Positions 4,822-31,443 of a DNA stretch of 64,000 bases are shown here, one piece after another. The translations under genes and the position numbers were made by a program. Under the pieces are notes generated by a model, which saw only the letters and a program-made list of their open reading frames with translations, was not told the DNA's origin and did not search any database. Each line of letters begins with the position of its first letter. Position 1 is the first letter of the stretch. Source of the DNA: Escherichia phage VpaE1_ev035; sequence record LR699048; one strand, 5' to 3'.

Positions 4822-5286
4822 ATGAACAATATCATTACGGTAGCACTGGACGATACGGCAAACAAATCTGAAGTAGTTCGTAAAATGATTCAAGGTAACT
4901 TTGAAGGTAAAATTTTCCGTGCTGTTAATGTAAAAGCTGATGGTAGCATTCGTGAATATCGTGCATTGTTGAACGTTAAGAAGCACGTAAAAGGTGTTGG
5001 TTCAACGACTGCACACAAAGAAAACCTGATGACTATCTATGATATGGGTAAGGCTTCAGAGTTAGGTGCTGAAGGTATCGTTAAAGAAGGTGCTCCGTAT
5101 CGCTCTTTCAATCTGGAAACTACTCTTATGCTTTCCTTTACAAGTGGTTCTAAAACAATCACTTATCTCTTTACTGATGCTGCAACGGTATCTGCTATTA
5201 AGGATAGCACTGTCAAAGCTGGCGTAGTTGCTGCTGCAAAAGCTTCTTCGATGGCTGCGAATATCCTTGCTAAAGTCCTCGGTTAA
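4822..5286 (+). CDS. hypothetical protein
   Basis: ORF track frame 4807..5286 (TTG); first ATG at 4822 preceded by GAGAGAAG RBS; followed by intrinsic terminator. Confidence 0.5.
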   Translation: MNNIITVALDDTANKSEVVRKMIQGNFEGKIFRAVNVKADGSIREYRALLNVKKHVKGVGSTTAHKENLMTIYDMGKASELGAEGIVKEGAPYRSFNLETTLMLSFTSGSKTITYLFTDAATVSAIKDSTVKAGVVAAAKASSMAANILAKVLG

Positions 5287-5296
5287 GGTTAAGATA

Positions 5297-5321
5297 CAGG
5301 CTCCTTCGGGAGCCTTTTTCA
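5297..5321 (+). terminator. rho-independent terminator
   Basis: CAGGCTCC-TTCG-GGAGCCT followed by TTTTTC. Confidence 0.7.
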
Positions 5322-5338
5322 TTTTAGGAGATTGTTAA

Positions 5339-5686
5339 ATGACATTTAAAGAGTTCTGTCAAGCTACTTTCATAATTGTTTTCTTAGTTGGTGCAGGTGT
5401 CTGGGGAGGATACTCTTACAGAGACTATCAAGTTGCTGAAACTGAGCTAAATAATGAGAAACTAATAAGTGTTGCTAAAGATGCTTATCAGGAAGGTTTA
5501 GCCACACTCAGCACCAATTACAAAAATGATTTGAAAGATGTGCTTGCTAAGAATAAGCATACAAAAGAGGTACTAACATATGAAAAAACTAAGCCAGAGT
5601 TTTATAATGTTTGTGTTACTGATAACTATGTCAGGGTGTTCAACGAACAAAGTGAGCAGTACATTCAAAAACTCCCAAGTAAGTGA
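5339..5686 (+). CDS. membrane protein with N-terminal TM helix; i-spanin candidate
   Basis: N-terminal hydrophobic segment FIIVFLVGAGVWGG then charged/coiled region; a lipoprotein gene starts inside its 3' end in another frame. Confidence 0.4.
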   Translation: MTFKEFCQATFIIVFLVGAGVWGGYSYRDYQVAETELNNEKLISVAKDAYQEGLATLSTNYKNDLKDVLAKNKHTKEVLTYEKTKPEFYNVCVTDNYVRVFNEQSEQYIQKLPSK

Positions 5687-5849
5687 GAGTGATAAGTACA
5701 CCCAAGAAGAATCACGGTATATCATCAAAGGCAACACAGGCAGTGATGTAGCAGCAGCCCTTGAGTTCTATCGTGACGGCTTTTACCAGTGCACAATCAA
5801 AGCTAACAACCTTATTGACATGATTTTATTAGGGAATAAGCAGCAATGA
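5580..5849 (+). CDS. lipoprotein; o-spanin candidate (overlapping partner of 5339-5686)
   Basis: Lipobox-like LITMSGC after signal sequence; start embedded out of frame in upstream TM-protein gene; AAGAGG RBS. Confidence 0.4.
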   Translation: MKKLSQSFIMFVLLITMSGCSTNKVSSTFKNSQVSESDKYTQEESRYIIKGNTGSDVAAALEFYRDGFYQCTIKANNLIDMILLGNKQQ

Positions 5850-6115
5850 CAGAGAATCAAGATACTTTTTACGTAGAAGGGTACTTACTGTTACCACGAC
5901 CAAAAGAAACTTATATGCGAATTGATTTCTTACCAACCATTATGGATAATGTGATGTGCCATATCTTTATGCAAGGTGTCACAGCACAACTTAAGCATGT
6001 TGGTAAAGAGTGCAAAATAAAGGTTGACACTCATCCAGAAATCAAAGAGAATCACTACACATGGTTCTTACCAGACTCTAAAGAAATCTTAGCAGTTCTT
6101 AAAACGAGGAAATGA
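5846..6115 (+). CDS. hypothetical protein
   Basis: ORF track; stop/start overlap with neighbours suggests operon. Confidence 0.45.
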   Translation: MTENQDTFYVEGYLLLPRPKETYMRIDFLPTIMDNVMCHIFMQGVTAQLKHVGKECKIKVDTHPEIKENHYTWFLPDSKEILAVLKTRK

Positions 6116-6426
6116 TTATGCAATTCCAGCCAACAAATCGTGGATTTTCTTATGCAGAATTTAAAGATGCTAAAGGGGAAATTTGTACTTTACAAGAGAG
6201 TTCATCATACGAACCATGTATCTGGTTAGGTGCTAAAGAGGTCTCTGTTCAGTACCTAGATAATGGCTGGAAAACACTTGATATCCCAGCATTAGTTGGT
6301 AAAGATTTTGTAGGTAATCAAAGAATGAAGCTCAATCAGGAACAGGTAAAAGAGTTGTTGCCGTACCTCCAATACTTTGCTGAAAATGGTGAATTACCAA
6401 CAGAGGAACTTACAAATGCAGATTAA
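6112..6426 (+). CDS. hypothetical protein
   Basis: ORF track; overlapping stop/start with upstream ORF. Confidence 0.45.
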   Translation: MIMQFQPTNRGFSYAEFKDAKGEICTLQESSSYEPCIWLGAKEVSVQYLDNGWKTLDIPALVGKDFVGNQRMKLNQEQVKELLPYLQYFAENGELPTEELTNAD

Positions 6427-6739
6427 TGGAAGAGACTTTGTAGCCGTTTACTACGAGAAGGATAAAGAGGTTGGTGTAGCACAAGTAACCTACGGCAACG
6501 GTAAGTGGTTATATGGAACAATAGCAGTAGTAGGAACAAGAAGTGATACAAAAACCTTTAAAGATTGTGTTGACCTTCTTGAAGAATCCATCCAGAATCA
6601 TTGGTGTCTGATATGGATGACTGACAACGAAGTGATGGAGCGTTTCAAAAAGATTGATATCAACATTGACAGTATTGAGCATGTTGATTTATATGAACTA
6701 ACCGAAAAGGTAAGCTATGAAAGCTCTAGAGGTAATTGA
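6416..6739 (+). CDS. hypothetical protein
   Basis: ORF track frame 6377..6739; internal ATG at 6416 has AGAGGA RBS and overlaps upstream stop, chosen as likelier start. Confidence 0.4.
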   Translation: MQINGRDFVAVYYEKDKEVGVAQVTYGNGKWLYGTIAVVGTRSDTKTFKDCVDLLEESIQNHWCLIWMTDNEVMERFKKIDINIDSIEHVDLYELTEKVSYESSRGN

Positions 6740-6944
6740 CAAAGATACTGGAGAAGTTACATCAGCATGTGTTTTCGTGAGCCACGACACAGTGATACCG
6801 TTTTACAATCTCGATAGTTTTAGTTTTACAGGGATAACTCCAGAAGAATACTTTGAAGACCTTACCTTTGCCAGAATTTCTATAGATACATTCTATAAAT
6901 GCTTCTATGATGAAGGTAAAGAATTACGAGAAACTGAACTATAA
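6717..6944 (+). CDS. hypothetical protein
   Basis: ORF track. Confidence 0.4.
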   Translation: MKALEVIDKDTGEVTSACVFVSHDTVIPFYNLDSFSFTGITPEEYFEDLTFARISIDTFYKCFYDEGKELRETEL

Positions 6945-6956
6945 GGTGTATATTAT

Positions 6957-7157
6957 ATGGCTGACTTCTGCAAAGACTGTTCTATCGAAATGTTTGGACG
7001 TGATACAGGTGACTTAAAAGGTCTTATCACTGAAGATGACTTTAAAGCTGGTTATGCAATGCCAGTAATCTGTGAAGGTTGTGGGTGCATCTGGGTAGAC
7101 CATGAAGGGCAACGTGTAAAACCTTCAGAAGATAAAGAATCTTGGGAGAGATGTTAA
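6957..7157 (+). CDS. small zinc-ribbon protein
   Basis: Two Cys pairs CKDC ... CEGCGC in 66 aa. Confidence 0.45.
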   Translation: MADFCKDCSIEMFGRDTGDLKGLITEDDFKAGYAMPVICEGCGCIWVDHEGQRVKPSEDKESWERC

Positions 7158-20970: not shown

Positions 20971-21435
20971 TTACTTTGGGTATACACTGTCAAGATAAAT
21001 GTCAGCTTCCATTCTACGTCTGTTTTTCAGGCCGTTTGAAGTAACCTTCTTACCTTTGACTGTAACCTTGTTCCACCACTGCATAGCTTCTGCACAACCA
21101 ACCTTATTACCAGCATTGTGGCGCTTGATAAATGTAGAGTCCTGCATAGCCGTGATACCAATGTTGTATGTTTCACTTACAAGTGCGTCAAACTCATTCT
21201 GAGAAGTTGGAACCTTGACGGCTTTGTTAACTGCTGCAACGAACTTTTCAACATCTGCGAGAAGATACTGTTCAGCTTGTTCAGCGGTAATTTTCATACC
21301 CATCTTAACAGGTTTACCAGCAATACGGATAGTCCCATACCCAATTGTGGGGATTCCAGCAGAATCTTCGTAAGCCTCAAGCTTAAGACCTTCAAAGAAC
21401 TTAATAGCTTCTAAACCTTTTCTTGAGAGTTGCAT
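20971..21435 (-). CDS. endolysin, glycoside hydrolase family 24 lysozyme
   Basis: Motif LEAIKFFEGLKLEAYEDSAGIPTIGYGT (catalytic E ... TIGYG) typical of T4/lambda-type lysozymes. Confidence 0.85.
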   Translation of the reverse strand: MQLSRKGLEAIKFFEGLKLEAYEDSAGIPTIGYGTIRIAGKPVKMGMKITAEQAEQYLLADVEKFVAAVNKAVKVPTSQNEFDALVSETYNIGITAMQDSTFIKRHNAGNKVGCAEAMQWWNKVTVKGKKVTSNGLKNRRRMEADIYLDSVYPK

Positions 21436-22571
21436 TATGCCTCCCCTGCTGGGTTAACTGTAACTGTTGCCGCATTAGATGTTACAGAGCCACCTGCACC
21501 AGTAACTACACAAGTGTAGCTTCCTGAATCAGCAGCGGTTGCACCTTCTTTGGTGTAAGTTGCAGTAGTTGCATCGAGGATGTCTTCCTCACCTTTCTTC
21601 CACTGGTAACCTGTCGCACCTGTTGCCACAACATTCAGCGTTAAGGTCTCACCTTCATTGATTTCTTGATTGGTTGGTTGCTGAGTGATTACTGGAAGTG
21701 CATTCACAGTAACTGTTGCTGCATTGGATGTGACTGTTGTACCACCAGCACCAGTAACTACACAGGTGTATGAACCTGCATCTGCTGGCAGCGCACCAGA
21801 CTTGCTATAGGTAGCCTCTGTAGCCGAAGGAATGTCAGAGCCATCTTTCTTCCACTGGTAACCCGTTGCACCCGTTGCAGTCACTTCCAAGCTGATGTTT
21901 CCACCCTCATTGATGGTCTGGCTAGAAGGTTGCTGTGTAATCACAGGCAGTGCGTTGACAGTAACTGTTGCCGCATCTGAGGTAACACTTGTACCAGCCT
22001 CTCCAGACACAACACAAGTATAAGAACCAGCATCAGAAGGTGCTACAGACTGTTTTGTGTAGGTTGCAGATGTGGCGCTAGTGATATCCTCACCATCTTT
22101 TTTCCATTGATATCCAGTGGCATTAGTTGCAATAACGCTTAGGGTAAGTGTGCCACCTTCATTTACTGTTTGATTGGTTGGTTGCTGAGTGATTGATGGT
22201 GGCTTGATAGCATCCTTCAACTTAGCATTCAACATTGAGAACGGTTTAACTCTTGCCAGCCATTCACAATAAACTGTGTCAACGTCTTTACCATTGATAA
22301 TTGCATATTGTAAGTCCATGAAGAAGTCAGAAGTTCTCATTTGAGCACCGATGCTGTAAAGCAACTCATCACTAAATGGGACTTTATAGTCTGGTTTGTA
22401 GTCAAACTTCTCAACTTCTGCAATATCAGCTTCAGGCCAATATGAACTATATGTGAGTGGTAAAATAGCCTCTTGATATGTTCTAAAATCATATCTCTTA
22501 CCAGCCTTTACATTTGCAACGAAGCCCTTCACAAACTCTTTGAAGTCTGGGTAAGTCTTTGCTTTAATCAT
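21435..22571 (-). CDS. protein with N-terminal domain paralogous to neighbour and three C-terminal Ig-like domains
   Basis: Three ~85-aa repeats ...ITQQP(T/S)NQ.INEGG...TGYQWKK(D/G)...AGSYTCVV(S/T)G..G(T/S)..S.AATVTVN, Ig-like G.Y.C signature; N-terminus aligns with 22568-22939 product. Confidence 0.6.
   Translation of the reverse strand: MIKAKTYPDFKEFVKGFVANVKAGKRYDFRTYQEAILPLTYSSYWPEADIAEVEKFDYKPDYKVPFSDELLYSIGAQMRTSDFFMDLQYAIINGKDVDTVYCEWLARVKPFSMLNAKLKDAIKPPSITQQPTNQTVNEGGTLTLSVIATNATGYQWKKDGEDITSATSATYTKQSVAPSDAGSYTCVVSGEAGTSVTSDAATVTVNALPVITQQPSSQTINEGGNISLEVTATGATGYQWKKDGSDIPSATEATYSKSGALPADAGSYTCVVTGAGGTTVTSNAATVTVNALPVITQQPTNQEINEGETLTLNVVATGATGYQWKKGEEDILDATTATYTKEGATAADSGSYTCVVTGAGGSVTSNAATVTVNPAGEA
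21440..22200 (-). repeat. three tandem ~250-bp coding repeats (Ig-like domain triplication)
   Basis: Near-repeated DNA units visible within CDS 21435-22571. Confidence 0.6.
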
Positions 22572-22939
22572 TTCTTTTTAGCCTCTAAATGTGCGTTTAG
22601 TCTAAAATAACCTTTGTGATGCGGAGATACATCACCAACAACAATGCCTTTAACCTTATAACCTTTACCAATTACATACTGGATATCCATAAGGAATCTT
22701 CCAAGTCCAACAATATGGAACATTGGATATAATAGATTCTCAGAATCTGGAATATTGATTTCAGGTTTGTAGGTGCGTTGTTCGCTTGTTGGTGTAATAT
22801 CTTCTTCAGGCCATTTACTGAGTCTCCATGTCAAAGGTGTTGGGATGACATCATTAAGGTTGTACCTTTCACCATTTTGCACGGAATTGATATAGGATTG
22901 TAGGAAGCAATAAAAGTCTTTTGCACTCTTAGCTTTCAT
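22568..22939 (-). CDS. hypothetical protein, paralog of the N-terminal domain of 21435-22571
   Basis: Shared blocks MKAK..DF..F...YIN.V..G.RY, WPE.DI, YKP...P.S..LLY, FLMD(I/L)QY(V/A)I. Confidence 0.5.
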   Translation of the reverse strand: MKAKSAKDFYCFLQSYINSVQNGERYNLNDVIPTPLTWRLSKWPEEDITPTSEQRTYKPEINIPDSENLLYPMFHIVGLGRFLMDIQYVIGKGYKVKGIVVGDVSPHHKGYFRLNAHLEAKKK

Positions 22940-24568: not shown

Positions 24569-24649
24569 TTTTAAAAGATGTTGACAGACTCTATAAAGTT
24601 ACTCTAAAGTCTGTCACATCAAACAACAAATGAGAGAAGAGAGTAAAAT

Positions 24650-26065
24650 ATGAGCGAATTATTTAAACATGCGCACCTTCATGCAGGTCGAACTGAAAAT
24701 GGTGCTGTAAACCATACTTCATCAATGTCTGCTCTTGTAGACTTTTACAAAGCTGCTGGTTCTAGCCGTAGCAACGTAGAAATCTTACCAGACCTGTTCT
24801 ACAAAGCTTTGCGTGAGGATGTTGATGTTGCAGTTCGTATTTTGCTTCATATGCGAGATGTACGAGAAGGTATGGGTGAGCGTAAAGCCTTCAGAACTGT
24901 TTTGCTTCAAGCAATTGAAGATAAAGTTTTAGAGCCTACACAGGTTCTTCGCATTATGGATAAGATTGCAGAACTTGGTCGTTTTGATGACTTCAAAATC
25001 TTCGTAGGTACTCGTTTCGAGACAGATGCCTTCAAACATTTAGAAGCAGCATTACTAGACCCTGCAACAGCAGGTTTGGCAGCCAAGTGGCTACCACGAG
25101 TCAAACCACGTCATAAGCAGTTTGTAAAACGTTTCTGCAAGTTTGCCAACTTGAGTGAGAAAGAGTACCGCACACTGTTGTCTGCACTATCTGATACAGT
25201 TGAGCAAAAAATCTCTGCTAATGAGTTTGGTAAGATTGACTACAGTAAGATTCCTTCACTTGCTGCTGCACGTTACCAAAACCTGTTTAACCGTAAAGAT
25301 GGAGAGCGTTACAAAGCTTACATCGAGTCCTTATCAAAAGGTGAGACTAAGATTAACGCTGGTGCTGTTTACCCATACGATGTGATTAAATCTGTCAAGT
25401 ATGGTAATGCAGATGTTGCTAATGAGCAGTGGAAATCACTACCAAACTGGATGGCAGAAGGTGAAAACATCTTGTGTATGTCTGATGTATCAAGTTCAAT
25501 GTCTTGGGTGAATTTTGGCTCCATTACTGCTCTGGATATTGGTGTATCACTTGCCTTGTATGTAGCAGAACGCAATACAGGTTGCTTTAAGGATGAGTTG
25601 ATGGTTTATTCAACAAACCCTCACTTCATCGAACTGAGTGGTGATTTACGAAACCGTCATCGTCAGGTGATGCGACACGTTGAATATGGCTCAACCAACT
25701 TACAAGCAGCTTTTGACCGCATTCTTGAGATAGGTAAGAGAAACAACTTGACTCAGGAAGATATGCCAAGTAAGCTTATCATCTTCTCCGATATGGAGTT
25801 CAATCAGGTTGATGGAGCTAACGGTCGTACAAACTTTGAAGCAATTCAGAGCAAGTACAAGAAAGCTGGATATGAGATGCCACAACTGGTATTCTGGTAC
25901 TTAGCAAACCGTAATGGTACTTGCGAAGTGTCTGTTAAGGATAACGGTGTAGCAATGGTATCTGGTTTCTCTCCCGCCACTTTAAAAGCTCTGCTTGGTG
26001 GTGAGAAGTTTGACCCAATCAGCGTAATGCTCAAAGCAGTAATGATTGACCGTTATATCTGGTAA
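24650..26065 (+). CDS. vWA (MIDAS) domain protein with N-terminal helical domain; candidate Ro60/TROVE-like or DUF2828-like protein
   Basis: C-terminal half carries the vWA MIDAS signature in order: CMSDVSSSM (DxSxS), GSTNLQAAF (GxT), LIIFSDMEF (D); N-terminal ~250 aa predicted helical; TROVE assignment is an inference from architecture only. Confidence 0.55.
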   Translation: MSELFKHAHLHAGRTENGAVNHTSSMSALVDFYKAAGSSRSNVEILPDLFYKALREDVDVAVRILLHMRDVREGMGERKAFRTVLLQAIEDKVLEPTQVLRIMDKIAELGRFDDFKIFVGTRFETDAFKHLEAALLDPATAGLAAKWLPRVKPRHKQFVKRFCKFANLSEKEYRTLLSALSDTVEQKISANEFGKIDYSKIPSLAAARYQNLFNRKDGERYKAYIESLSKGETKINAGAVYPYDVIKSVKYGNADVANEQWKSLPNWMAEGENILCMSDVSSSMSWVNFGSITALDIGVSLALYVAERNTGCFKDELMVYSTNPHFIELSGDLRNRHRQVMRHVEYGSTNLQAAFDRILEIGKRNNLTQEDMPSKLIIFSDMEFNQVDGANGRTNFEAIQSKYKKAGYEMPQLVFWYLANRNGTCEVSVKDNGVAMVSGFSPATLKALLGGEKFDPISVMLKAVMIDRYIW

Positions 26066-26083: not shown

Positions 26084-26112
26084 TTGACAATGTGTTTAAT
26101 ACCCTTTAATAT
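26084..26112 (+). promoter_or_regulatory. sigma70-like promoter (TTGACA-N17-TAATAT) embedded in a palindrome, upstream of the tRNA array
   Basis: -35 26084-26089, -10 26107-26112; inverted repeat AGGGTAT/ATACCCT brackets the -35 and spacer. Confidence 0.5.
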
Positions 26113-26174
26113 GTTCTACATAGAAACGAAATGAGAGCTTTTCTAAGATACTGAAAAATATTTTAAAAAAGTTC

Positions 26175-26203
26175 TTGACAATCACTAAAAAATAATGTTA
26201 AAG
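26175..26203 (+). promoter_or_regulatory. possible second promoter (TTGACA-N17-TTAAAG, weak -10)
   Basis: Consensus -35 at 26175-26180, poor -10. Confidence 0.25.
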
Positions 26204-26230
26204 TGGTTACATAGAGTTTGAAAAGTTTAT

Positions 26231-26307
26231 CTCTGTTTAGCTCAGCTTGGTAGAGCGTTCCGTTTGGGGCGGTAAGGCCGGAGGTTCAAGTCCTCCAACA
26301 GAGACCA
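26231..26307 (+). tRNA. tRNA-Pro (anticodon UGG)
   Basis: Manual cloverleaf: acceptor CTCTGTT/AACAGAG (C1-G72), D-arm AGCTCAGCTTGGTAGAGC, loop UUUGGGG, T-arm GGAGG-TTCAAGT-CCTCC, encoded CCA. Confidence 0.75.
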
Positions 26308-26314
26308 AATTAAT

Positions 26315-26392
26315 GTTCCAGTGGACAAAATGGTAAAGTCACCACTCTTTCAAAGTGGATATTTGAGGGTTCAAATCCCTTCTGGAACGCCA
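26315..26392 (+). tRNA. tRNA-Glu (anticodon UUC)
   Basis: Acceptor GTTCCAG/CTGGAAC, anticodon stem CCACT/AGTGG with loop CUUUCAA, T-loop TTCAAAT, CCA. Confidence 0.75.
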
Positions 26393-26397
26393 GTTTT

Positions 26398-26475
26398 GAC
26401 AGAAGACCAATTACAGCAAGTTTAATCTTATTCATCTGAAGGTAAATCGGACAAAGAAGAGATTTGGTCTGGTCA
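26398..26475 (+). ncRNA. conserved structured tRNA-spacer element, copy 1
   Basis: 5' box GACAGAAGACCAATTACAGCAAG and 3' box TTTGGTCTGGTC fold as lower helix GAC/GUC, internal loop AGA opposite G, upper helix AGACCAA/UUGGUCU; ~43-nt apical region. Confidence 0.45.
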
Positions 26476-26483
26476 TTAAGAAT

Positions 26484-26560
26484 TGCGGGTATAGAGAAAT
26501 GGCGTCTCACATGTCTCATTAGCATGGTATCGGCAGGTTCGACTCCTGCACCCGCCTCCA
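26484..26560 (+). tRNA. tRNA-Met or Ile2 (anticodon CAU), non-canonical 1:72 pair
   Basis: Anticodon stem CATGT/GCATG, loop CUCAUUA; T-arm GCAGG-TTCGACT-CCTGC; acceptor pairs 6/7 with position 1 unpaired; CCA. Confidence 0.55.
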
Positions 26561-26564
26561 ATTT

Positions 26565-26629
26565 TGCAGAAGACCGTATTCAGCAACAAAATACTTTTTG
26601 CGGATAAAAGAAAAAACACGGTCTGGCAA
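26565..26629 (+). ncRNA. conserved structured tRNA-spacer element, copy 2
   Basis: 5' box TGCAGAAGACCGTATTCAGCAAC, 3' box ACACGGTCTGGCA; lower helix UGC/GCA (compensatory vs copy 1), same AGA/G internal loop, upper helix AGACCGU/ACGGUCU. Confidence 0.45.
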
Positions 26630-26637
26630 TGTATTAA

Positions 26638-26714
26638 GGTTAGGAAGCACATAAGGTATGTGCGGTCGCCTGTTAAGCGAATGGCACAGGGTTCGAATCC
26701 CTGACTAACCGCCA
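26638..26714 (+). tRNA. tRNA-Asn (anticodon GUU)
   Basis: Acceptor GGTTAGG/ACTAACC, D-stem GCAC/GTGC, loop CUGUUAA, T-arm CAGGG-TTCGAAT-CCCTG, CCA. Confidence 0.75.
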
Positions 26715-26783
26715 AATTTAGGAGAGAAGCGATTGCTCACCGATTTGTAAGGTGCAAGTCCTTAGCCTGAATAGAAATTAAAT

Positions 26784-26871
26784 GTGTCGTTATCCCGTAG
26801 ATGGTAGCGGTGGGGACTGTAAATCCCTTGTCATTGAGACTCGGTAGGTTCGACTCCTACACGGCACACCA
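26784..26871 (+). tRNA. tRNA-Tyr (anticodon GUA), long variable arm
   Basis: Acceptor GTGTCGT/ACGGCAC, anticodon stem GGGA/TCCC with loop CUGUAAA, ~16-nt variable arm, T-arm GTAGG-TTCGACT-CCTAC, CCA. Confidence 0.7.
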
Positions 26872-26876
26872 ATAAA

Positions 26877-26954
26877 GGTTATGTAGTTTAATTTGGTTAA
26901 AATACTCCCCTGTCACGGGAGATGATGAGGGTTCAAATCCCTTCGTAACCGCCA
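26877..26954 (+). tRNA. tRNA-Asp (anticodon GUC)
   Basis: Acceptor GGTTATG/CGTAACC, anticodon stem CTCCC/GGGAG with loop CUGUCAC, T-loop TTCAAAT, CCA. Confidence 0.75.
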
Positions 26955-27012
26955 ATTTTGAGAGGGCTATTTAGCCCCTCCCTTAAAGGGTTCTTACGAG
27001 TATCCTTTAAAG

Positions 27013-27092
27013 GAGCAGAAGACCAAATACAGCAAGTTACTTAAAATTTCAAGCCAATTTAATTTTGAAAAATTTAAAACTTGGTCTGGCTC
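27013..27092 (+). ncRNA. conserved structured tRNA-spacer element, copy 3
   Basis: 5' box GAGCAGAAGACCAAATACAGCAAG, 3' box CTTGGTCTGGCTC; lower helix GAGC/GCUC, AGA/G internal loop, upper helix AGACCAA/UUGGUCU. Confidence 0.45.
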
Positions 27093-27097
27093 AACAA

Positions 27098-27236
27098 ATT
27101 TACAGAAGACCGTTTACAGCAAAACTTAAACAATCTATTTCTCGGTAAAGAAAAGGCGAAGGTTCGATTCCTTCACTCGGCAGATGTCGAGTTGGTGTAA
27201 TGGTAGCACTTAAGATGATAAACAACGGTCTGGTAA
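27098..27236 (+). ncRNA. conserved structured tRNA-spacer element, copy 4, enclosing a circularly permuted tRNA-like module (Y RNA/YrlA-like architecture)
   Basis: 5' box TTTACAGAAGACCGTTTACAGCAA, 3' box AACGGTCTGGTAA (lower helix UUAC/GUAA, upper helix 8 bp); apical region 27158-27210 holds T-arm GAAGG-TTCGATT-CCTTC, then acceptor 3' strand ACTCGGC joined by a short loop to acceptor 5' strand GTCGAGT, then D-arm GTG-TAATGGTAG-CAC; no anticodon arm. Confidence 0.45.
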
Positions 27237-27382
27237 TTATCTTTGTAGATAAGTTATTAAGCTTACCTGTGAGTATGCGACCACAAAGGGTGAAAGGGTA
27301 AATTCTAGATTTAAACCCAAAAAGGCACATCGCTACAGACCTTAAGCAAGTCTGGGTAGCTTATCTACAAAGATAATTTAAT

Positions 27383-27458
27383 GGAAGTGTAGCAGAATGG
27401 TGATGCGGCAGACTTTTAATCTGACAGGCGATGGGTTCGAATCCCTCCACTTCTACCA
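27383..27458 (+). tRNA. tRNA-Lys (anticodon UUU)
   Basis: Acceptor GGAAGTG/CACTTCT, loop CUUUUAA, T-loop TTCGAAT, CCA; T-stem has mismatches. Confidence 0.6.
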
Positions 27459-27462
27459 ATAT

Positions 27463-27539
27463 GGTTCAGTCGCAGATAAGGTAATGCAAGGGTCTCGTAA
27501 GCCCTATGAATGTGGGTTCGAATCCCATCTGAACCTCCA
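27463..27539 (+). tRNA. tRNA-Thr (anticodon CGU)
   Basis: Acceptor GGTTCAG/CTGAACC, anticodon stem AGGGT/GCCCT with loop CUCGUAA, T-arm GTGGG-TTCGAAT-CCCAT, CCA. Confidence 0.7.
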
Positions 27540-27541
27540 AT

Positions 27542-27616
27542 TGTGGGTTAGCATAAATGGTAATGCAAACGGCTGATAACCGTTAGAAGAGGGTTCGATA
27601 CCCTCACCTACAACCA
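27542..27616 (+). tRNA. tRNA-Ile (anticodon GAU)
   Basis: Acceptor TGTGGGT/ACCTACA, anticodon stem AACGG/CCGTT with loop CUGAUAA, T-arm GAGGG-TTCGATA-CCCTC, CCA. Confidence 0.7.
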
Positions 27617-27631
27617 AGTTCAATAAAGTTG

Positions 27632-27660
27632 TTGACATTGAGATGTGACTACTTTATAGT
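27632..27660 (+). promoter_or_regulatory. sigma70-like promoter inside tRNA array (TTGACA-N17-TATAGT)
   Basis: -35 27632-27637, 17-nt spacer, -10 27655-27660. Confidence 0.5.
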
Positions 27661-27864
27661 AACCTTAGTTTTCGTTGCGTAGCGTCTATTTTGCAAATTT
27701 AAAATAAATGCAAACGACAATGTTTTTCTGGCAGTAGCTTGATAGGCTAAACACCAGTGAGGTCTTCCAATCCCTCATCAAAGAATTTGGCGTACTCGCC
27801 CACGGTATGATTAATAAGGTGGGCATCTTTAAGGGCTTTCTAAGAGAGTCTTTAAAGATAATTA

Positions 27865-27946
27865 CGGGGCGTATCTCAGCGGTCTTCTAAACCGCCGTTA
27901 ACCGAGTAAGTGGAGTATGCGGGTTCGAGTCCTGCCGCCTCGACCA
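27865..27946 (+). tRNA. tRNA-Arg-like (anticodon UCU) with aberrant D-arm and enlarged variable region
   Basis: Acceptor CGGGGCG/CGCCTCG, anticodon stem GCGGT/ACCGC with loop CUUCUAA, T-arm GCGGG-TTCGAGT-CCTGC, CCA; D-region does not fold canonically. Confidence 0.45.
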
Positions 27947-28089
27947 ATTTAGTTAGCAGATTACTTAGACGACCTAAGCGGGTCTTCCTGTAGGGAGGTG
28001 GTCTGTATCTCATGTTTTCCAGAACATGTAAATAATCTGAGAAGGGGCTTTACAGTGTTGAGATAATACGGTAAGCTTCGAATTATAGT

Positions 28090-28172
28090 ATGGGACGATG
28101 TTAAGACTCTAAGGCATGAGCAACGGCCTCCAAAACCGTTTCAAAGGGGTTCAACTCCTCCGTCCCATGCCA
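28090..28172 (+). tRNA. tRNA-Trp (anticodon CCA) with expanded D-region
   Basis: Perfect 7-bp acceptor ATGGGAC/GTCCCAT, anticodon loop CUCCAAA (as in E. coli tRNA-Trp), T-loop TTCAACT, CCA; ~6 extra nt before the anticodon stem. Confidence 0.5.
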
Positions 28173-28185
28173 AAGTCTTATTAGG

Positions 28186-28275
28186 GGTAGGTAGCGGCTA
28201 ATGGTAGCCAAACTGTCTTGAAAACAGTTGCCACTGTAGAGATACGGTGAGGGTTCGACTCCTTTACTTACCGCC
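28186..28275 (+). tRNA. tRNA-Ser (anticodon UGA), long variable arm, CCA apparently not encoded
   Basis: Acceptor GGTAGGT/ACTTACC, D-stem GGC/GCC, anticodon stem ACTGT/ACAGT with loop CUUGAAA, long variable arm, T-loop TTCGACT. Confidence 0.6.
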
Positions 28276-28531
28276 TAATAAGATTTAAAGCCAAGCTTCA
28301 TTCGGATGTTGCTTTGGTATCCCTCGTGTATTGTCGTACACGCACAGTAAAGCACCTAGTAGGTGTCACGGAGAAGAGATAATATCAAGCTCTCCAAAGG
28401 TTCTAGTCACCGGATTAAACAAGACTATGCAAAGACCAAATTAGGTCTTTTTAGAGGGCTTCTAAGGTTATTACAGCTTGTTGTGGAACCTTGTTGCTTA
28501 GGTTCTTAGAAGTTCTCTAAAAAGATTTAAT

Positions 28532-28609
28532 GGGAGATTGATGGTAATTGGTAAACCTATCTCGCTTAGAACGAGATGTTTGAGGGTTCGAATCCCTTGT
28601 CTCCTACCA
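28532..28609 (+). tRNA. tRNA with Leu anticodon UAG but short variable arm (type-I architecture)
   Basis: Acceptor GGGAGAT/GTCTCCT, anticodon stem TCTCG/CGAGA with loop CUUAGAA, 5-nt variable loop, T-arm GAGGG-TTCGAAT-CCCTT, A73, CCA. Confidence 0.55.
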
Positions 28610-28616
28610 AATTAAT

Positions 28617-28692
28617 GCAGGTGTAGCAAAATGGTTATGCGGCTGACTCTTAATCAGTAAGACGATGGGTTCAATTCCCTCCACCTGTACCA
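28617..28692 (+). tRNA. tRNA-Lys (anticodon CUU)
   Basis: Acceptor GCAGGTG/CACCTGT, anticodon stem GCTGA/TCAGT with loop CUCUUAA, T-loop TTCAATT, CCA. Confidence 0.55.
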
Positions 28693-28698
28693 AAAAAT

Positions 28699-28774
28699 GG
28701 GGTCATAGTTTATATGGTTAAAATTCGAGTTTTGCAAACTTGGGAACTGAGTTCAATTCTCAGTGACTCCACCA
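28699..28774 (+). tRNA. tRNA-Ala (anticodon UGC)
   Basis: Acceptor GGGGTCA/TGACTCC, loop UUUGCAA, T-arm CTGAG-TTCAATT-CTCAG, CCA. Confidence 0.7.
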
Positions 28775-28780
28775 ATTAGT

Positions 28781-28855
28781 GCATCCATAGTTTAAACGGG
28801 AAAATTACAGTCTTCCAAACTGAGGTTGAGGGTTCGATTCCCTCTGGATGCTCCA
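28781..28855 (+). tRNA. tRNA-Gly (anticodon UCC)
   Basis: Perfect acceptor GCATCCA/TGGATGC, loop CUUCCAA, T-arm GAGGG-TTCGATT-CCCTC, CCA. Confidence 0.75.
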
Positions 28856-28861
28856 AATAAT

Positions 28862-28937
28862 GCTCCTATCGTATAATTGGCTATTACGGTTGCCTTGTAA
28901 GCAACTTATCAGGGTTCGAATCCTTGTGGGAGCACCA
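28862..28937 (+). tRNA. tRNA-Thr (anticodon UGU)
   Basis: Acceptor GCTCCTA/TGGGAGC, anticodon stem GTTGC/GCAAC with loop CUUGUAA, T-arm CAGGG-TTCGAAT-CCTTG, CCA. Confidence 0.75.
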
Positions 28938-29032
28938 ATTCAGAGGTCAAGTGAAAGACCGCTGGTGTCAACTGAAGACCGTAACAAATTCCACGGAGTT
29001 GAGTTAGCGGCACAACTTCAGACCTCTTTCAC
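28938..29032 (+). ncRNA. candidate structured RNA between tRNA-Thr(UGU) and tRNA-Val
   Basis: Multiple complementary segments (GAGGTC/GACCTC, GTGAAAG/CTTTCAC, CTGAAG/CTTCAG); contains a GAAGACCG box related to the spacer elements; no tRNA fold. Confidence 0.3.
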
Positions 29033-29107
29033 ACTCGCTTAGTTTATATGGTAAAACATCACCCTTACAAGATGAAGAAAAAGGTTCAAGTCCTTTAGTG
29101 AGTACCA
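29033..29107 (+). tRNA. tRNA-Val (anticodon UAC)
   Basis: Acceptor ACTCGCT/AGTGAGT, loop CUUACAA, T-arm AAAGG-TTCAAGT-CCTTT, CCA. Confidence 0.65.
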
Positions 29108-29108
29108 T

Positions 29109-29186
29109 GTTCCAGTATCCCAATTGGCAGAGGATGCAAGCTCAAACCTTGTACTAGTGACGGTTCGAATCCGTCTTGGAACACCA
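29109..29186 (+). tRNA. tRNA with Leu anticodon CAA but short variable arm (type-I architecture)
   Basis: Acceptor GTTCCAG/TTGGAAC, anticodon stem GCAAG/CTTGT with loop CUCAAAC, T-arm GACGG-TTCGAAT-CCGTC, A73, CCA. Confidence 0.55.
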
Positions 29187-29191
29187 ATTTT

Positions 29192-29267
29192 GCAGGATTA
29201 GTTCAAATGGATAGAGCAACAGTCTACGAAGCTGTTAATAGGGGTTCGAATCCCTTATCCTGCACCA
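29192..29267 (+). tRNA. tRNA-Arg (anticodon ACG)
   Basis: Perfect acceptor GCAGGAT/ATCCTGC, D-arm GTTCAAATGGATAGAGC, loop CUACGAA, T-arm AGGGG-TTCGAAT-CCCTT, CCA. Confidence 0.8.
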
Positions 29268-29285
29268 GATAAGCAAGAGGAATTT

Positions 29286-29528
29286 ATGCAAACATTAATC
29301 GTCGTTGAACATGAAAATTCCAATAGTATTGAGTTTGTAAGGGTTCCCACTATAGATACCCACATTTTCTTAAAAGTCGGATGGGAATGCGACCCAATAA
29401 AAGTAGAAAGATTTATTGGTCATTGCTTTGGTGGAAGACAACTTAAAAGTGTCAATTTTGAGACAATGTTACCAGAAAGCTCAGAAACAAGTAATAATGC
29501 TTACCTCCTTACGAGGGTTAGACAATGA
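29286..29528 (+). CDS. hypothetical protein (inside tRNA array)
   Basis: ORF track, ATG with AGAGG RBS. Confidence 0.4.
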   Translation: MQTLIVVEHENSNSIEFVRVPTIDTHIFLKVGWECDPIKVERFIGHCFGGRQLKSVNFETMLPESSETSNNAYLLTRVRQ

Positions 29529-30082
29529 GATACTTAAAATATGCTTCATGGATTTTCTTAGCTTTGCTAGAACCACTTGCAGCAATACTAGCAGTTATCT
29601 TAGCACCTTTCGTAGTTCCATTCTACAGTGAGAAGAAAGGACATCTACCTTTTGGATTCAGATGGATGGAGACCTATGACAACCCAATTGATGGTGATGA
29701 AGGTCACGTTAAAAGATGGGCTAATATTAGATGGATTGGTAAACTAGGTGTCTACATGCAAAGAGTTGGATGGCTCTGGAGAAACAAAGCTTATAACTTC
29801 TCTTACCATGTGTTAGGAAGAGATGTAAAAGATGTTACTAAGTGGAAAGGTAATATCAACGTAAGTTCTAACCCTGAAGATAATCAGACTGGTTATCTCC
29901 TAATGTGGAACAGGAATGCTTGGGGATTATTCGCTTTTATCCCATCAATTAAAATCTTTGGTAAACAATTTTACTGGAGAATTTATATTGGATGGAAACT
30001 AAAAAGTGTTGTCCCAGAAGAAAGAGCATTCTCAAGGGAAAGAGTTATGTTGGCATTCTTTATTCATCCACTGAGAAAGTAA
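29525..30082 (+). CDS. hypothetical membrane protein (inside tRNA array)
   Basis: N-terminal hydrophobic segment IFLALLEPLAAILAVILAPFVV; Trp-rich. Confidence 0.45.
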   Translation: MRYLKYASWIFLALLEPLAAILAVILAPFVVPFYSEKKGHLPFGFRWMETYDNPIDGDEGHVKRWANIRWIGKLGVYMQRVGWLWRNKAYNFSYHVLGRDVKDVTKWKGNINVSSNPEDNQTGYLLMWNRNAWGLFAFIPSIKIFGKQFYWRIYIGWKLKSVVPEERAFSRERVMLAFFIHPLRK

Positions 30083-30090
30083 AGATTTAA

Positions 30091-30166
30091 AGGGGATTAG
30101 TTTACAAGGTTAAAACCTCGGTCTTTGAAATCGAAGAAGTTGGTTCAATTCCAACATCCCCCGCCA
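30091..30166 (+). tRNA. tRNA-Gln (anticodon UUG)
   Basis: Acceptor AGGGGAT/ATCCCCC (1:72 unpaired), anticodon stem TCGGT/ATCGA with loop CUUUGAA, T-arm GTTGG-TTCAATT-CCAAC, CCA. Confidence 0.65.
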
Positions 30167-30168
30167 AT

Positions 30169-30247
30169 GCTCCATTACTCCAATTGGCAGAGAGGCCAGA
30201 CTTAAAATCTGTGTTATGTATCGGTTCGAATCCGATATGGAGTACCA
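30169..30247 (+). tRNA. tRNA with Leu anticodon UAA but short variable arm (type-I architecture)
   Basis: Acceptor GCTCCAT/ATGGAGT, anticodon stem CCAGA/TCTGT with loop CUUAAAA, T-arm ATCGG-TTCGAAT-CCGAT, A73, CCA. Confidence 0.55.
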
Positions 30248-30252
30248 AATTT

Positions 30253-30328
30253 AGCGGTATAGCATAACTGGCAATGCAGCAGTCTCTGAAGCTGTCTTAT
30301 TAAGGTTCAAATCCTTATGCCGCTGCCA
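30253..30328 (+). tRNA. tRNA-Gln (anticodon CUG)
   Basis: Acceptor AGCGGTA/TGCCGCT, anticodon stem GCAGT/GCTGT (two G-U pairs) with loop CUCUGAA, T-arm TAAGG-TTCAAAT-CCTTA, CCA. Confidence 0.6.
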
Positions 30329-30359
30329 CTTCTAAGGGTTCTTACGAGAGTCCTTAAAT

Positions 30360-30435
30360 GTGGCCTTATCATAAATGGTAATGACCCATGCTGTGAACAT
30401 GGTCTATACGGGTTCAAATCCCGTAGGTCACCCCA
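30360..30435 (+). tRNA. tRNA-His (anticodon GUG)
   Basis: Acceptor GTGGCCT/AGGTCAC, perfect anticodon stem CCATG/CATGG with loop CUGUGAA, T-arm ACGGG-TTCAAAT-CCCGT, discriminator C73, CCA. Confidence 0.75.
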
Positions 30436-30440
30436 ATTTA

Positions 30441-30517
30441 TAGTCCAAGTAGCTTATATGGTTAAAGCGCGTGTCTGAAAAACATGAGAAGAGGGTTCAA
30501 ATCCCACTGGACTACCA
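30441..30517 (+). tRNA. tRNA-Phe (anticodon GAA)
   Basis: Acceptor TAGTCCA/TGGACTA, anticodon stem CGTGT/ACATG with loop CUGAAAA, T-loop TTCAAAT; exact ends uncertain. Confidence 0.6.
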
Positions 30518-30533
30518 ATTTCAAAGGTGCTTA

Positions 30534-31268
30534 ATGAAAGAGATGACAGAACAAGGTAAGGAGATTTTTAATCTCTTAAAAACTGGTAAAGGGTTCTCTA
30601 ATCCCCTTATTACTGGTGCAGCAGTTCTCGGTGGAACCGTAGCTGCCTCTATATCACTTGTAAGCTCTATTAGCTCTGTAACAGACCCTACAATAAAAGA
30701 TAAACTTGTTGCTGCTGGACTTACAACAGTTCTGCTTAACAGCTTTACAACGAGTCTGACAAGCACTACATCAACTACCAAAACGCTAACGGATTATGGT
30801 CAAAAATCCATTGATGAGTTTTCATCACGTATGCAGGTAGCAAAAGGTTATTCTAATGTTATGGGTGCAGCAGGGGAGCAAGTTGGTTGTACACCGTTTA
30901 GTGGTATTATGGGCGTTGCTACAGAATATGGTCAAAAAGCTATTGACACAATTAACAGTGCACTAGATGGCGTTAATGATGTGTTAAGTGACTTACAAGA
31001 TGCTATTGATAATGGTCTTGATACTGTTTCTGATTTAGCTAACCAAGCTGTCAGTAAGATTAATGAAGGTATCTCAAAGATTACAGCTTATGCAGATGAA
31101 GTTGTGCAGATGATTGAAGAAGAGGCTGCCCTTATTGCAGAGTACCTTAAAACGAATATCAATGGGTTCTTAGCAGGTATCTTACCAGACTGGTTTGATG
31201 ATGCCTGTAAAACTGGTGTAATTGACACTATTGCAACACCAGAAATGAAGAGCGCATTACAGAAATAA
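30534..31268 (+). CDS. hypothetical protein (inside tRNA array)
   Basis: ORF track frame 30471..31268 starts inside tRNA-Phe; first ATG after the tRNA at 30534; Ser/Thr/Ala-rich with helical C-terminus. Confidence 0.5.
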   Translation: MKEMTEQGKEIFNLLKTGKGFSNPLITGAAVLGGTVAASISLVSSISSVTDPTIKDKLVAAGLTTVLLNSFTTSLTSTTSTTKTLTDYGQKSIDEFSSRMQVAKGYSNVMGAAGEQVGCTPFSGIMGVATEYGQKAIDTINSALDGVNDVLSDLQDAIDNGLDTVSDLANQAVSKINEGISKITAYADEVVQMIEEEAALIAEYLKTNINGFLAGILPDWFDDACKTGVIDTIATPEMKSALQK

Positions 31269-31269
31269 T

Positions 31270-31360
31270 GGAAGATTAACCCTAAAAGGTAAGGGAGCAG
31301 TTTGCTAAACTGCCAGTAGCTGAGAAATCGGTGTACCAGTTCAAGTCTGGTATCTTCCTC
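31270..31360 (+). tRNA. tRNA-Ser (anticodon GCU), long variable arm
   Basis: Perfect acceptor GGAAGAT/ATCTTCC, D-stem CCC/GGG, perfect anticodon stem GCAGT/ACTGC with loop UUGCUAA, ~20-nt variable arm, T-arm ACCAG-TTCAAGT-CTGGT, CCA. Confidence 0.8.
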
Positions 31361-31367
31361 CAATTTT

Positions 31368-31443
31368 GAATCCGTGACAGAAATGGATATGTGCCTGTCT
31401 GCAAAACAGGTTTATAAGGGTTCAAGTCCCTTCGGATTCTCCA
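31368..31443 (+). tRNA. tRNA-Cys (anticodon GCA)
   Basis: Perfect acceptor GAATCCG/CGGATTC, perfect anticodon stem CCTGT/ACAGG with loop CUGCAAA, T-arm AAGGG-TTCAAGT-CCCTT, CCA. Confidence 0.8.

Follow-up and report, generated by a model that had tools for sequence, protein, structure and literature searches.

A divergent protein of probable Ro60 type and Y-like RNAs at the start of the tRNA array of Escherichia phage VpaE1_ev035

Particles of Ro60 and Y RNA are conserved from bacteria to humans, and their mechanism is under debate. To our knowledge, the earlier phage examples of Ro60 are limited to TROVE-annotated proteins of actinophages and Thermus phages. In this study, we analyzed a 64,000-nucleotide stretch of Escherichia phage VpaE1_ev035 (record LR699048; hereafter the window), focusing on an open reading frame (ORF) at 24650-26065 whose product carries a von Willebrand factor A (vWA) domain, and on four RNA elements, E1-E4, in the first spacers of the adjoining tRNA array. 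The protein is probably a divergent member of the Ro60 type, with the spacers at the start of the array encoding its Y-RNA-type partners, of which E1-E3 are short and E4 is long and tRNA-like.

The bacterial Y RNA YrlA is a stable RNA, its tRNA-like domain has the arm order V-T-AS-D, and a GNCGAAN0-1G motif near its 5' end is the presumed contact with Ro60 (Chen et al. 2014, PMC4201824). Precedents for the function of such particles include a Ro60-Y RNA-PNPase machine in Deinococcus and Salmonella (PMC4201824) and the capture of PNPase by the Ro60 of Thermus phage phiLo (PMC12135203). Compared with bacterial and actinophage Ro60 (Rsr) and the RNAs YrlA and YrlB, the system in the window has in common a helical ring (predicted) combined with a vWA fold and its MIDAS (the metal ion-dependent adhesion site), partner-type RNAs within a few hundred nucleotides on the same strand, one long RNA with a V-T-closed acceptor-D mimic inside a closing stem plus shorter RNAs lacking the mimic, and an occasional linkage to RtcB, RNA ligase or phosphoesterase genes. 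It differs in that the protein has no Pfam TROVE or vWA_Ro60 match and a shorter N-domain, in that the RNAs carry a 7-8 bp AG..CU stem, UWCAGCAA and an A-rich 3' strand instead of the GNCGAAN0-1G bulged helix, and in that four RNA copies are set inside a tRNA array. The phiLo system, consisting of phiRo60 with Yrl1 and Yrl2 (PMC12135203; PDB 9kop, 9l5y), is based on a recognisable TROVE protein, unlike the VpaE1_ev035 protein, and on canonical stem-bulge-stem RNAs with the canonical binding site, and no tRNA-array context is reported for it. The proteins of cluster-L mycobacteriophages (Kingsolomon gp54; LeBron gp53, PMC13148394) belong to the same DUF2828+DUF7788 family and are accompanied by the same class of CAGCAA Y-like RNA, but Kingsolomon has a single long RNA outside any tRNA array, which is unannotated in its record as well; LeBron gp53 was found to be moderately toxic when overexpressed, with nothing further reported (PMC13148394). 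The DUF2828/DUF7788 proteins of giant viruses and eukaryotes share family and fold with the VpaE1_ev035 protein but are longer, the DUF2828 profile having 405 positions, mainly the last ~110 of which are matched by the phage proteins. We know of no RNA partners of these giant-virus and eukaryotic proteins.

Fold and family of the protein

The ORF corresponds to ORF42 of phage FelixO1 (Felix01p079), which is recorded in RefSeq as "RNA-binding protein" and elsewhere as "vWFA protein" or as hypothetical. Pfam analysis of the translated sequence returned DUF2828 (E 6e-29, 101.6 bits against a cut-off of 29) and the vWA-like family DUF7788 (E 4e-44, 151.1 bits against a cut-off of 27.1), with a weak VWA_2 match besides, and the hidden Markov model phrog_850, named 'RNA-binding protein', was matched over positions 1-476 of 476 (E 6e-183). 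The same PHROG was matched over its full length (1.4e-98) by gp106 of Streptomyces phage Gilson, a canonical Ro60 with Pfam TROVE and vWA_Ro60 domains. The first-pass annotation, made from the nucleotide sequence, had described an ordered MIDAS signature in the C-terminal half and a helical N-terminal domain of about 250 aa, and both were recovered. DVSSSM occupies aa 279-284 (nt 25484-25501), GST lies in the aa 345-349 region with T349 (nt 25688-25696) and FSDME occupies aa 379-383 (nt 25784-25798), and the residues D279, S281, S283, T349 and D381 are all invariant in an alignment of 42 homologs with 40-89% identity to the VpaE1_ev035 protein. The N-domain contains the invariant motifs TxNG, RDxRxGxGER, GRxDD and KWxPR, and its ~265 aa are helical in a confident AlphaFold2 model, made without templates from an alignment of 42 sequences (pLDDT 90.8, pTM 0.90).

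When this model was compared with the PDB by Foldseek, the top 11 places were all taken by full-length structures of Ro60, with TM reaching 0.68 and E of about 1e-7 (Xenopus, human, Deinococcus Rsr and Thermus phage phiLo), and the matches ranked below them covered the vWA domain alone with TM of about 0.2. The comparison with Ro60 structures that had been proposed as a check thus came out in favour of the likeness, and the whole predicted chain has the layout of the solved structures, an alpha-helical HEAT-type domain followed by a C-terminal vWA domain. In a viral structure library, the nearest folds outside the family were a crAss-like "TROVE domain-containing protein" and a Gordonia phage "Ro-like RNA binding protein". 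At the profile level, the vWA half was aligned by hhalign to that of 23 canonical phage Ro60s with 80% probability (E 1.4e-5), and PF25045 (vWA_Ro60) was weakly matched by 10 of the 42 homologs (best 1.7e-4), the VpaE1_ev035 protein itself falling below the Pfam cut-off. Phmmer and profile searches against the PDB yielded weak vWA matches and nothing more, and an NCBIfam search with the protein gave no relevant match. When the N-domain was aligned by itself with canonical Ro60, the one likeness seen was that of the motif ElGRwDD to RiGAFDDM.

Judged by its predicted structure, the protein is a Ro60-fold member of a divergent clade. A Ro-like identity is already implicit in annotation, both in the RefSeq name and in cluster-L mycobacteriophages, where proteins with 33-34% full-length identity to the VpaE1_ev035 protein are named "Ro-like RNA binding protein" in GenBank. 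In the literature searched, we found no published case for the Ro60 identity of DUF2828-type phage proteins, the papers in which DUF2828 is named having no bearing on it, and no paper tying Felixounavirus to Ro60, TROVE or Y RNA was found in the accessible literature, which is incomplete, so that an earlier mention is possible. The family is large, and its recurrence goes well past anything attributable to chance, with 1780 homologous clusters at 90% identity and, at 50% identity, 9036 (E<=1e-3) or 4152 (E<=1e-30) clusters; homologs are present in 708 isolate phage genomes, and the virion types that carry them are very diverse, siphoviruses and giant viruses included. The DUF2828/DUF7788 range covers phages of Proteobacteria, Campylobacterota, Firmicutes and Actinobacteria, giant viruses and eukaryotes. 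Among the giant viruses, the fold was seen in Pithovirus, Cafeteria roenbergensis virus, Mimiviridae and Marseillevirus (BFVD, TM 0.6-0.88).

Y-like RNAs in the tRNA array and beside homologous genes

Repeat analysis (D8) showed that the first spacers of the array hold CAGAAGACC..ACAGCAA four times, each time with a ..GGTCTGG downstream. The earlier reading had placed the gene directly upstream of the tRNA array and had likened its position next to the spacer elements to that of Ro60 genes next to their Y RNAs; the array indeed begins 166 nt past the stop codon, and the four Y-like RNAs E1-E4 are found on the gene's strand (+), 331-1034 nt downstream of it. E1 and E2 occupy the tRNA-Glu/tRNA-Met and tRNA-Met/tRNA-Asn spacers almost exactly, and the stretch from tRNA-Asp to tRNA-Lys holds E3 and E4 in tandem. 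Common to all four is a UWCAGCAA / A-rich loop on a closing stem of 7-8 bp; the distal bases of the stem vary among the copies and pairing is kept by compensation. The stem and loop read AGACCAA/UUGGUCU with ACAGCAA in E1 and E3, and AGACCGU/ACGGUCU with UCAGCAA in E2. An outer 4-bp helix, flanking a fixed AGA/G internal loop, covaries in all four elements (UGAC/GUCA, UUGC/GCAA, GAGC/GCUC and UUAC/GUAA in E1 to E4, respectively).

In E4, the closing stem (27107-27114/27224-27231) is followed by CAGCAA (27117-27122), an anticodon-stem-like helix (27125-27128/27211-27214), a V arm (27134-27156), a T arm (27158-27174; GAAGG-UUCGAUU-CCUUC), a closed 7-bp acceptor hairpin with the 4-nt loop AGAT (27175-27192), a U-G dinucleotide and a D arm (27195-27209; GUGU-AAUGGUA-GCAC). 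The order V-T-closed acceptor-D is the topology of the YrlA Y RNAs. E4 is 99% identical among seven Felixounaviruses, with rare changes located in loops or preserving pairing as G-U. It does not fall into the tRNA class, as ARAGORN made no call, the acceptor is closed and an anticodon arm is lacking; the Rfam tRNA model matched the T arm alone (14.9 bits). A blastn search for diverged orthologs of E1-E4 returned, below ~92% identity, nothing but tRNA similarity, and neither a covariance model (CM) scan nor inspection of the sequence revealed an autoregulatory copy in the 5' untranslated region (UTR) of the gene itself.

The distribution of the elements was then surveyed in 80 viral-contig loci with homologs, 75 of which are not from Felixounavirus and encode proteins 39-47% identical to the VpaE1_ev035 protein. 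A descriptor scan (T arm, closed 7-bp acceptor hairpin and D arm) detected permuted tRNA modules in 9 unrelated loci, invariably on the gene's strand. On the 5' side of each module stands C(A/C)GCAA, itself preceded by a strand of 7-9 nt that pairs with a stretch 3' of the D arm, its sequence being distinct in every locus and the pairing constant. A first covariance model (R1) was seeded with E4 from near-identical Felixounavirus copies and a hand-drawn structure, and a second (R2) was rebuilt from 18 diverse hits; MAFFT alignments of the diverse RNAs were misaligned and hence not used for the model. In the R2 census, 92 matches at E<=1 were obtained in 709 kb, none of them on the minus strand: 13 overlap tRNAs, 4 are the window copies, and the other 75 are non-tRNA matches distributed over 46 of the 75 loci (a stricter limit of E<=0.01 leaves 46 matches in 31 loci). 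The elements lie at a median of 156 nt from the gene, with 50 of the 75 no more than 300 nt away. tRNAs are present in just 25 of the 75 loci, so that the elements are not a by-product of tRNA arrays.

Covariation supports the structure. Paired positions made up 93.8% of cells; shuffling lowered this to 58%, and sliding the partners to 37-45%. Compensatory changes were present in 35 of the 36 pairs, and the helices were 83-99% paired; over all 92 R2 matches, pairing was 87.8% against 54.5%. The consensus module can be written AAG-R-W-U-NNN / UW-CAGCAA ... AAAA / NNN-A-W-Y-C-U-G, in which CAGCAA is 90-100% invariant (C19, G21 and C22 at 99-100%). About half of the R2 matches are long forms with the tRNA-like core and the remainder are short hairpins. 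In at least 9 loci, a copy ends 2-15 nt ahead of the gene's Shine-Dalgarno sequence or start codon, which suggests feedback control and supports the module as a candidate binding site of the protein. Of six named phages in a separate set, five have R2 elements beside the gene, namely Klebsiella phi1_175008, Cronobacter S13, Bacillus PJN02, Campylobacter Los1 and Listeria List-36. In mycobacteriophage Kingsolomon the element lies 130 nt downstream of the gene (R2 72.5 bits).

The RNAs of the relatives were also compared with known Y RNAs. In some relatives, the same elements score 36.7-39.2 bits with Rfam YrlA, below its 69-bit gathering threshold, and in Kingsolomon the Rfam alignment covers the tRNA-like core and skips the 5' stem/CAGCAA module. 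At the canonical Ro60 locus of Gilson, the YrlA-like RNA carries a GUCGGAUG-type motif of the GNCGAA class and lacks CAGCAA. Since the Gilson RNA is of the GNCGAA type whereas the CAGCAA module is found here, the partner RNA has diverged together with the protein. The design is that of Y RNAs, with a different presumed recognition module. E1-E4 were previously unannotated. Judged from the literature searched, the class of cognate RNAs, with a motif of its own and a location in spacers of tRNA arrays, seems to be a variant of the Ro60/Y-RNA system that has gone unreported.

Some further observations concern the survey RNAs. In Cronobacter phage S13 (NC_028773), RefSeq lists a 121-nt 'tRNA-Ser' and a 113-nt 'tRNA-OTHER' at 4896-5138, and R2 gives Y-like RNAs at 4939-5074 (62.5 bits) and 5146-5297 (46.5 bits); the two tRNA entries are probably mis-annotations. 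Long forms with T and D arms and no closed acceptor hairpin occur in three loci (L031 3781-3906, L016 1524-1643 and L029 3839-3951), and in a fourth (L077 8476-8615) the acceptor loop is CCCAAU, resembling an encoded NCCA end.

A proposed particle and the alternatives

In the mechanism that we propose, strong early promoters would transcribe the tRNAs and Y-like RNAs as a single precursor, from which RNase P and 3'-processing enzymes would excise the tRNAs and thereby free E1-E4. The protein would bind the conserved stem and the UWCAGCAA / A-rich module, and E4 would use its tRNA-like domain to recruit a partner that handles tRNA or RNA, for which analogy points to host PNPase or an enzyme of RNA repair. 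In the infected cell, the resulting ribonucleoprotein (RNP) may act on RNAs that are structured, misfolded or cleaved, with RNA quality control, repair or PNPase capture as conceivable roles. A bolder version, which we regard as doubtful, is that the DUF2828/DUF7788 clade forms a second Ro-type RNP class, so far overlooked, with its own stem and UWCAGCAA code, in which the Y-like RNAs of tRNA arrays are tRNA-processed and serve counter-defence with the ring; such particles might capture, shield or pass to repair tRNAs cut by host anticodon nucleases, or might divert host PNPase.

Several results weigh against a Ro60-type assignment. Pfam TROVE (PF05731) was matched neither by the VpaE1_ev035 protein (E<=1) nor by any of the 42 homologs (E<=10), so that among the Pfam families named in the first-pass annotation the expectation held for DUF2828 and, as DUF7788, for a vWA-type family but not for TROVE. 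The N-domain was aligned to the 23 canonical phage Ro60s by hhalign with 4% probability, and alignments with one canonical Ro60 or with the 23-sequence canonical alignment were confined to the vWA domain; homology of the helical domain is suggested by the predicted structure and PHROG clustering, and this domain is about 100 aa shorter than in Ro60 (~265 aa vs ~360 aa). On the side of the RNAs, the GNCGAAN0-1G Ro-binding motif is absent from those in the window, and a 1-kb scan with Rfam YrlA (RF02553) left E1-E4 unmatched at a limit as loose as E<=10. About 29 of the 75 loci lack any element within 4 kb, and none was seen in Staphylococcus phage Alsa_3. The pairing counts are inflated by CM alignments fitted to the structure, the pairing itself having been seen by eye before modelling. 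An RNA-repair neighbourhood as a general rule was rejected, with Rnl1 in 2, Metallophos in 4 and Band_7 in 3 of the 75 loci. The TROVE/Ro60-like assignment of the earlier reading is supported: it is borne out in the whole-chain fold, in the profile likeness of the vWA domain and in the nearby Y-like RNAs, and not in the family profiles of the helical domain.

The protein could instead be a generic vWA/MIDAS interaction factor (a chaperone cofactor, or one for assembly or adhesion) with an unrelated helical domain, the spacer hairpins being processing or termination signals of the tRNA operon. The profile assignment of the N-domain to a DUF alone with TROVE unmatched, the name 'vWFA protein' in some records and the position of the gene between the tail/lysis and packaging genes would agree with this, but the whole chain matches the Ro60 fold far above the vWA-only scores and there is no MoxR/AAA+ neighbour. 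The RNA module is present beside the gene in tRNA-free loci, and because it follows the gene in loci without tRNAs it is not a feature of tRNA operons; a generic factor of this kind seems quite improbable. Nor is the gene product likely to be a virion component, an explanation to which we give hardly any credit: the gene has its own early-type sigma-70 promoter (predicted), it lies outside the head/tail module that begins at the terminase gene, and its homologs occur in very different virion types such as siphoviruses and giant viruses. A list of 22 proteins of the VpaE1 virion has been published (Fig. 5B of PMC4690856).

Two further explanations concern the RNAs. The stem/CAGCAA elements might be cis-regulatory operators or leaders of the gene's own mRNA, acting in autoregulation or like a riboswitch, and not stable trans-acting Y RNAs. 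The copies just before the Shine-Dalgarno sequence or start codon would suit such a role, as would the many more that stand directly past the stop codon. In the window, however, two promoters and two tRNAs intervene between the gene and the copies, its 5' UTR contains no copy, and the long forms bear a complete tRNA-like domain, like YrlA, which is stable in bacteria (PMC4201824); the two roles are also compatible, as an operator copy would still imply binding of the module by the protein. A purely cis-acting role is thus unlikely. It is also very improbable that E4 and its relatives are unlinked to the protein and stem from tRNA genes that have decayed or been permuted or split, or from homing-endonuclease activity that scarred the array. 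The tRNA-like T and D arms, the location in a tRNA array, the HNH endonuclease genes inserted in the FelixO1 array and the RefSeq tRNA labels of the S13 copies are what such an origin would predict, but the near-identity of E4 among Felixounaviruses, with changes confined to loops or G-U pairs, is set against it, as are the closed acceptor hairpin and absent anticodon arm, the conserved and covarying non-tRNA closing stem with CAGCAA, and the elements that adjoin the gene in tRNA-free loci.

The protein belongs to a much larger and more divergent family with a Ro60 fold (predicted) and matching tRNA-mimic and short partner-type RNAs, which includes model and applied phages such as FelixO1, Listeria P100/A511-type, Campylobacter, Vibrio and Klebsiella phages. 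The RNAs of this family bear a different, sharply conserved presumed binding module, so that two solutions of protein-RNA recognition on one fold could be compared naturally, and a tractable E. coli/Salmonella phage system would be available for the study of Ro RNPs in infection. The covariance model annotates elements that were left blank or mislabelled as odd tRNAs, as in Cronobacter phage S13, and the placement of E1-E4 suggests that phage tRNA arrays can carry non-tRNA cargo.

The locus, its neighbourhood and minor observations

The coordinates of the features are listed in Table 1. Over a 3-kb stretch around the gene, identity to some 250 genomes of Felixounavirus (FelixO1, VpaE1, Mushroom and others) is 96-97%. 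The gene is placed at a divergent switch point: the upstream tail and lysis genes are oriented leftward, and a small DUF5681 gene, the Ro60-like gene, an array of 25 tRNAs (26231-31443, ARAGORN) and the terminase and portal genes follow in rightward order. The DUF5681 gene was considered as a conserved partner and rejected, being present only in the closest relative (L007).

Table 1. Features of the Ro60-like gene and the start of the tRNA array in the window
Feature	Position	Strand	Evidence
Ro60-like RNA-binding protein CDS, DUF2828/DUF7788 type, 471 aa, ATG start	24650..26065	+	ORF list, Pfam, PHROG, fold search
Helical N-domain, Pfam DUF2828, aa 1-268; by fold a ring segment of HEAT/TROVE-like type	24650..25453	+	Pfam, predicted model, fold search
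C-terminal vWA domain (Pfam DUF7788), full MIDAS D279-x-S281-x-S283, T349, D381	25454..26062	+	Pfam, homolog alignment, hhalign
E1, short Y-like RNA	26396..26479	+	repeat D8; CM 26.6 bits, then 30.2 bits, E 0.0012
E2, short Y-like RNA	26563..26633	+	repeats; CM 30.1 bits, then 35.2 bits, E 7e-5
E3, short Y-like RNA	27012..27096	+	repeats; CM 24.1 bits, E 0.04
E4, long YrlA-like Y RNA	27099..27240	+	repeats, descriptor scan, CM 134.8 bits
tRNAs Pro, Glu, Met, Asn, Tyr, Asp, Lys-UUU flanking E1-E4	26231..27458	+	tRNA calling
Sigma-70-like promoter TTGACA-18-TAAAGT, 5' of Ro60-like gene	24581..24610	+	10/12 consensus match alone
Two tandem sigma-70-like promoters (26084-26112; 26175-26204) ahead of tRNA/Y-like RNA array	26084..26204	+	consensus scan, repeat D15

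The predicted promoter of the gene is overlapped by the inverted repeat GACAGACT..AGTCTGTC. Promoters of the early type, which carry an A-rich element upstream (AAAAAGTT..TTGACA), recur at about 24040, 24581, 26084, 26175 and 27632, the last of which (11/12 match) is located within the tRNA array. Neither the FelixO1 and adrianh annotations nor the related loci that were inspected show a MoxR-type AAA+ ATPase gene among the neighbours, and a MoxR-associated vWA cochaperone, a class marked by such an adjoining gene, was rejected.

In some related loci the neighbouring genes suggest a link to RNA repair. In Listeria phage List-36 (L089), the Ro-like gene has beside it genes for RtcB, annotated 'tRNA splicing ligase', and for a metal-dependent phosphohydrolase (5075-7021); a metagenomic phage (L082; 5279-6391, 8842-9555) has a T4-type Rnl1 RNA ligase, Band_7 and a Metallophos phosphoesterase beside it, and Rnl1 and a phosphoesterase adjoin it in L022 too. 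In the Listeria and Staphylococcus phages of the Herelleviridae, the gene found just upstream of the Ro-like one is annotated 'ribosome associated inhibitor A; zinc finger' (L089 2349-2561 and L090 2647-2859, respectively).

Other structured elements were noted in the tRNA array. A long hairpin between E4 and tRNA-Lys (27235-27378) has 22-nt arms (27235-27256 and 27357-27378) that are 95% complementary and a structured loop of ~100 nt; its minimum free energy is -48.6 kcal/mol for 27230-27385, and it had no Rfam or R2 match. Two hairpins follow tRNA-Asp (26955-27011), and the motif AAGGGTTCTTACGAG..TCCTT is found at 26986-27010 and again at 30334-30358 in the tRNA-Gln/tRNA-His spacer; these hairpins may be processing or termination signals. 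A tRNA-like sequence at 27865-27943 received no ARAGORN call and passes the Rfam tRNA threshold (31.7 bits against 29), 28092-28166 gave a weak tRNA-Sec-like match (23 bits) with no ARAGORN call, and 27559-27863 contains weak sub-threshold tmRNA-like matches. On the minus strand upstream of the gene, the ORF 21435-22571 encodes three Ig-like repeats (ITQQP..NEGG..YQWKK..GSYTC), and its N-terminal ~120 aa are paralogous to the neighbouring ORF 22568-22939, which lies on the same strand.

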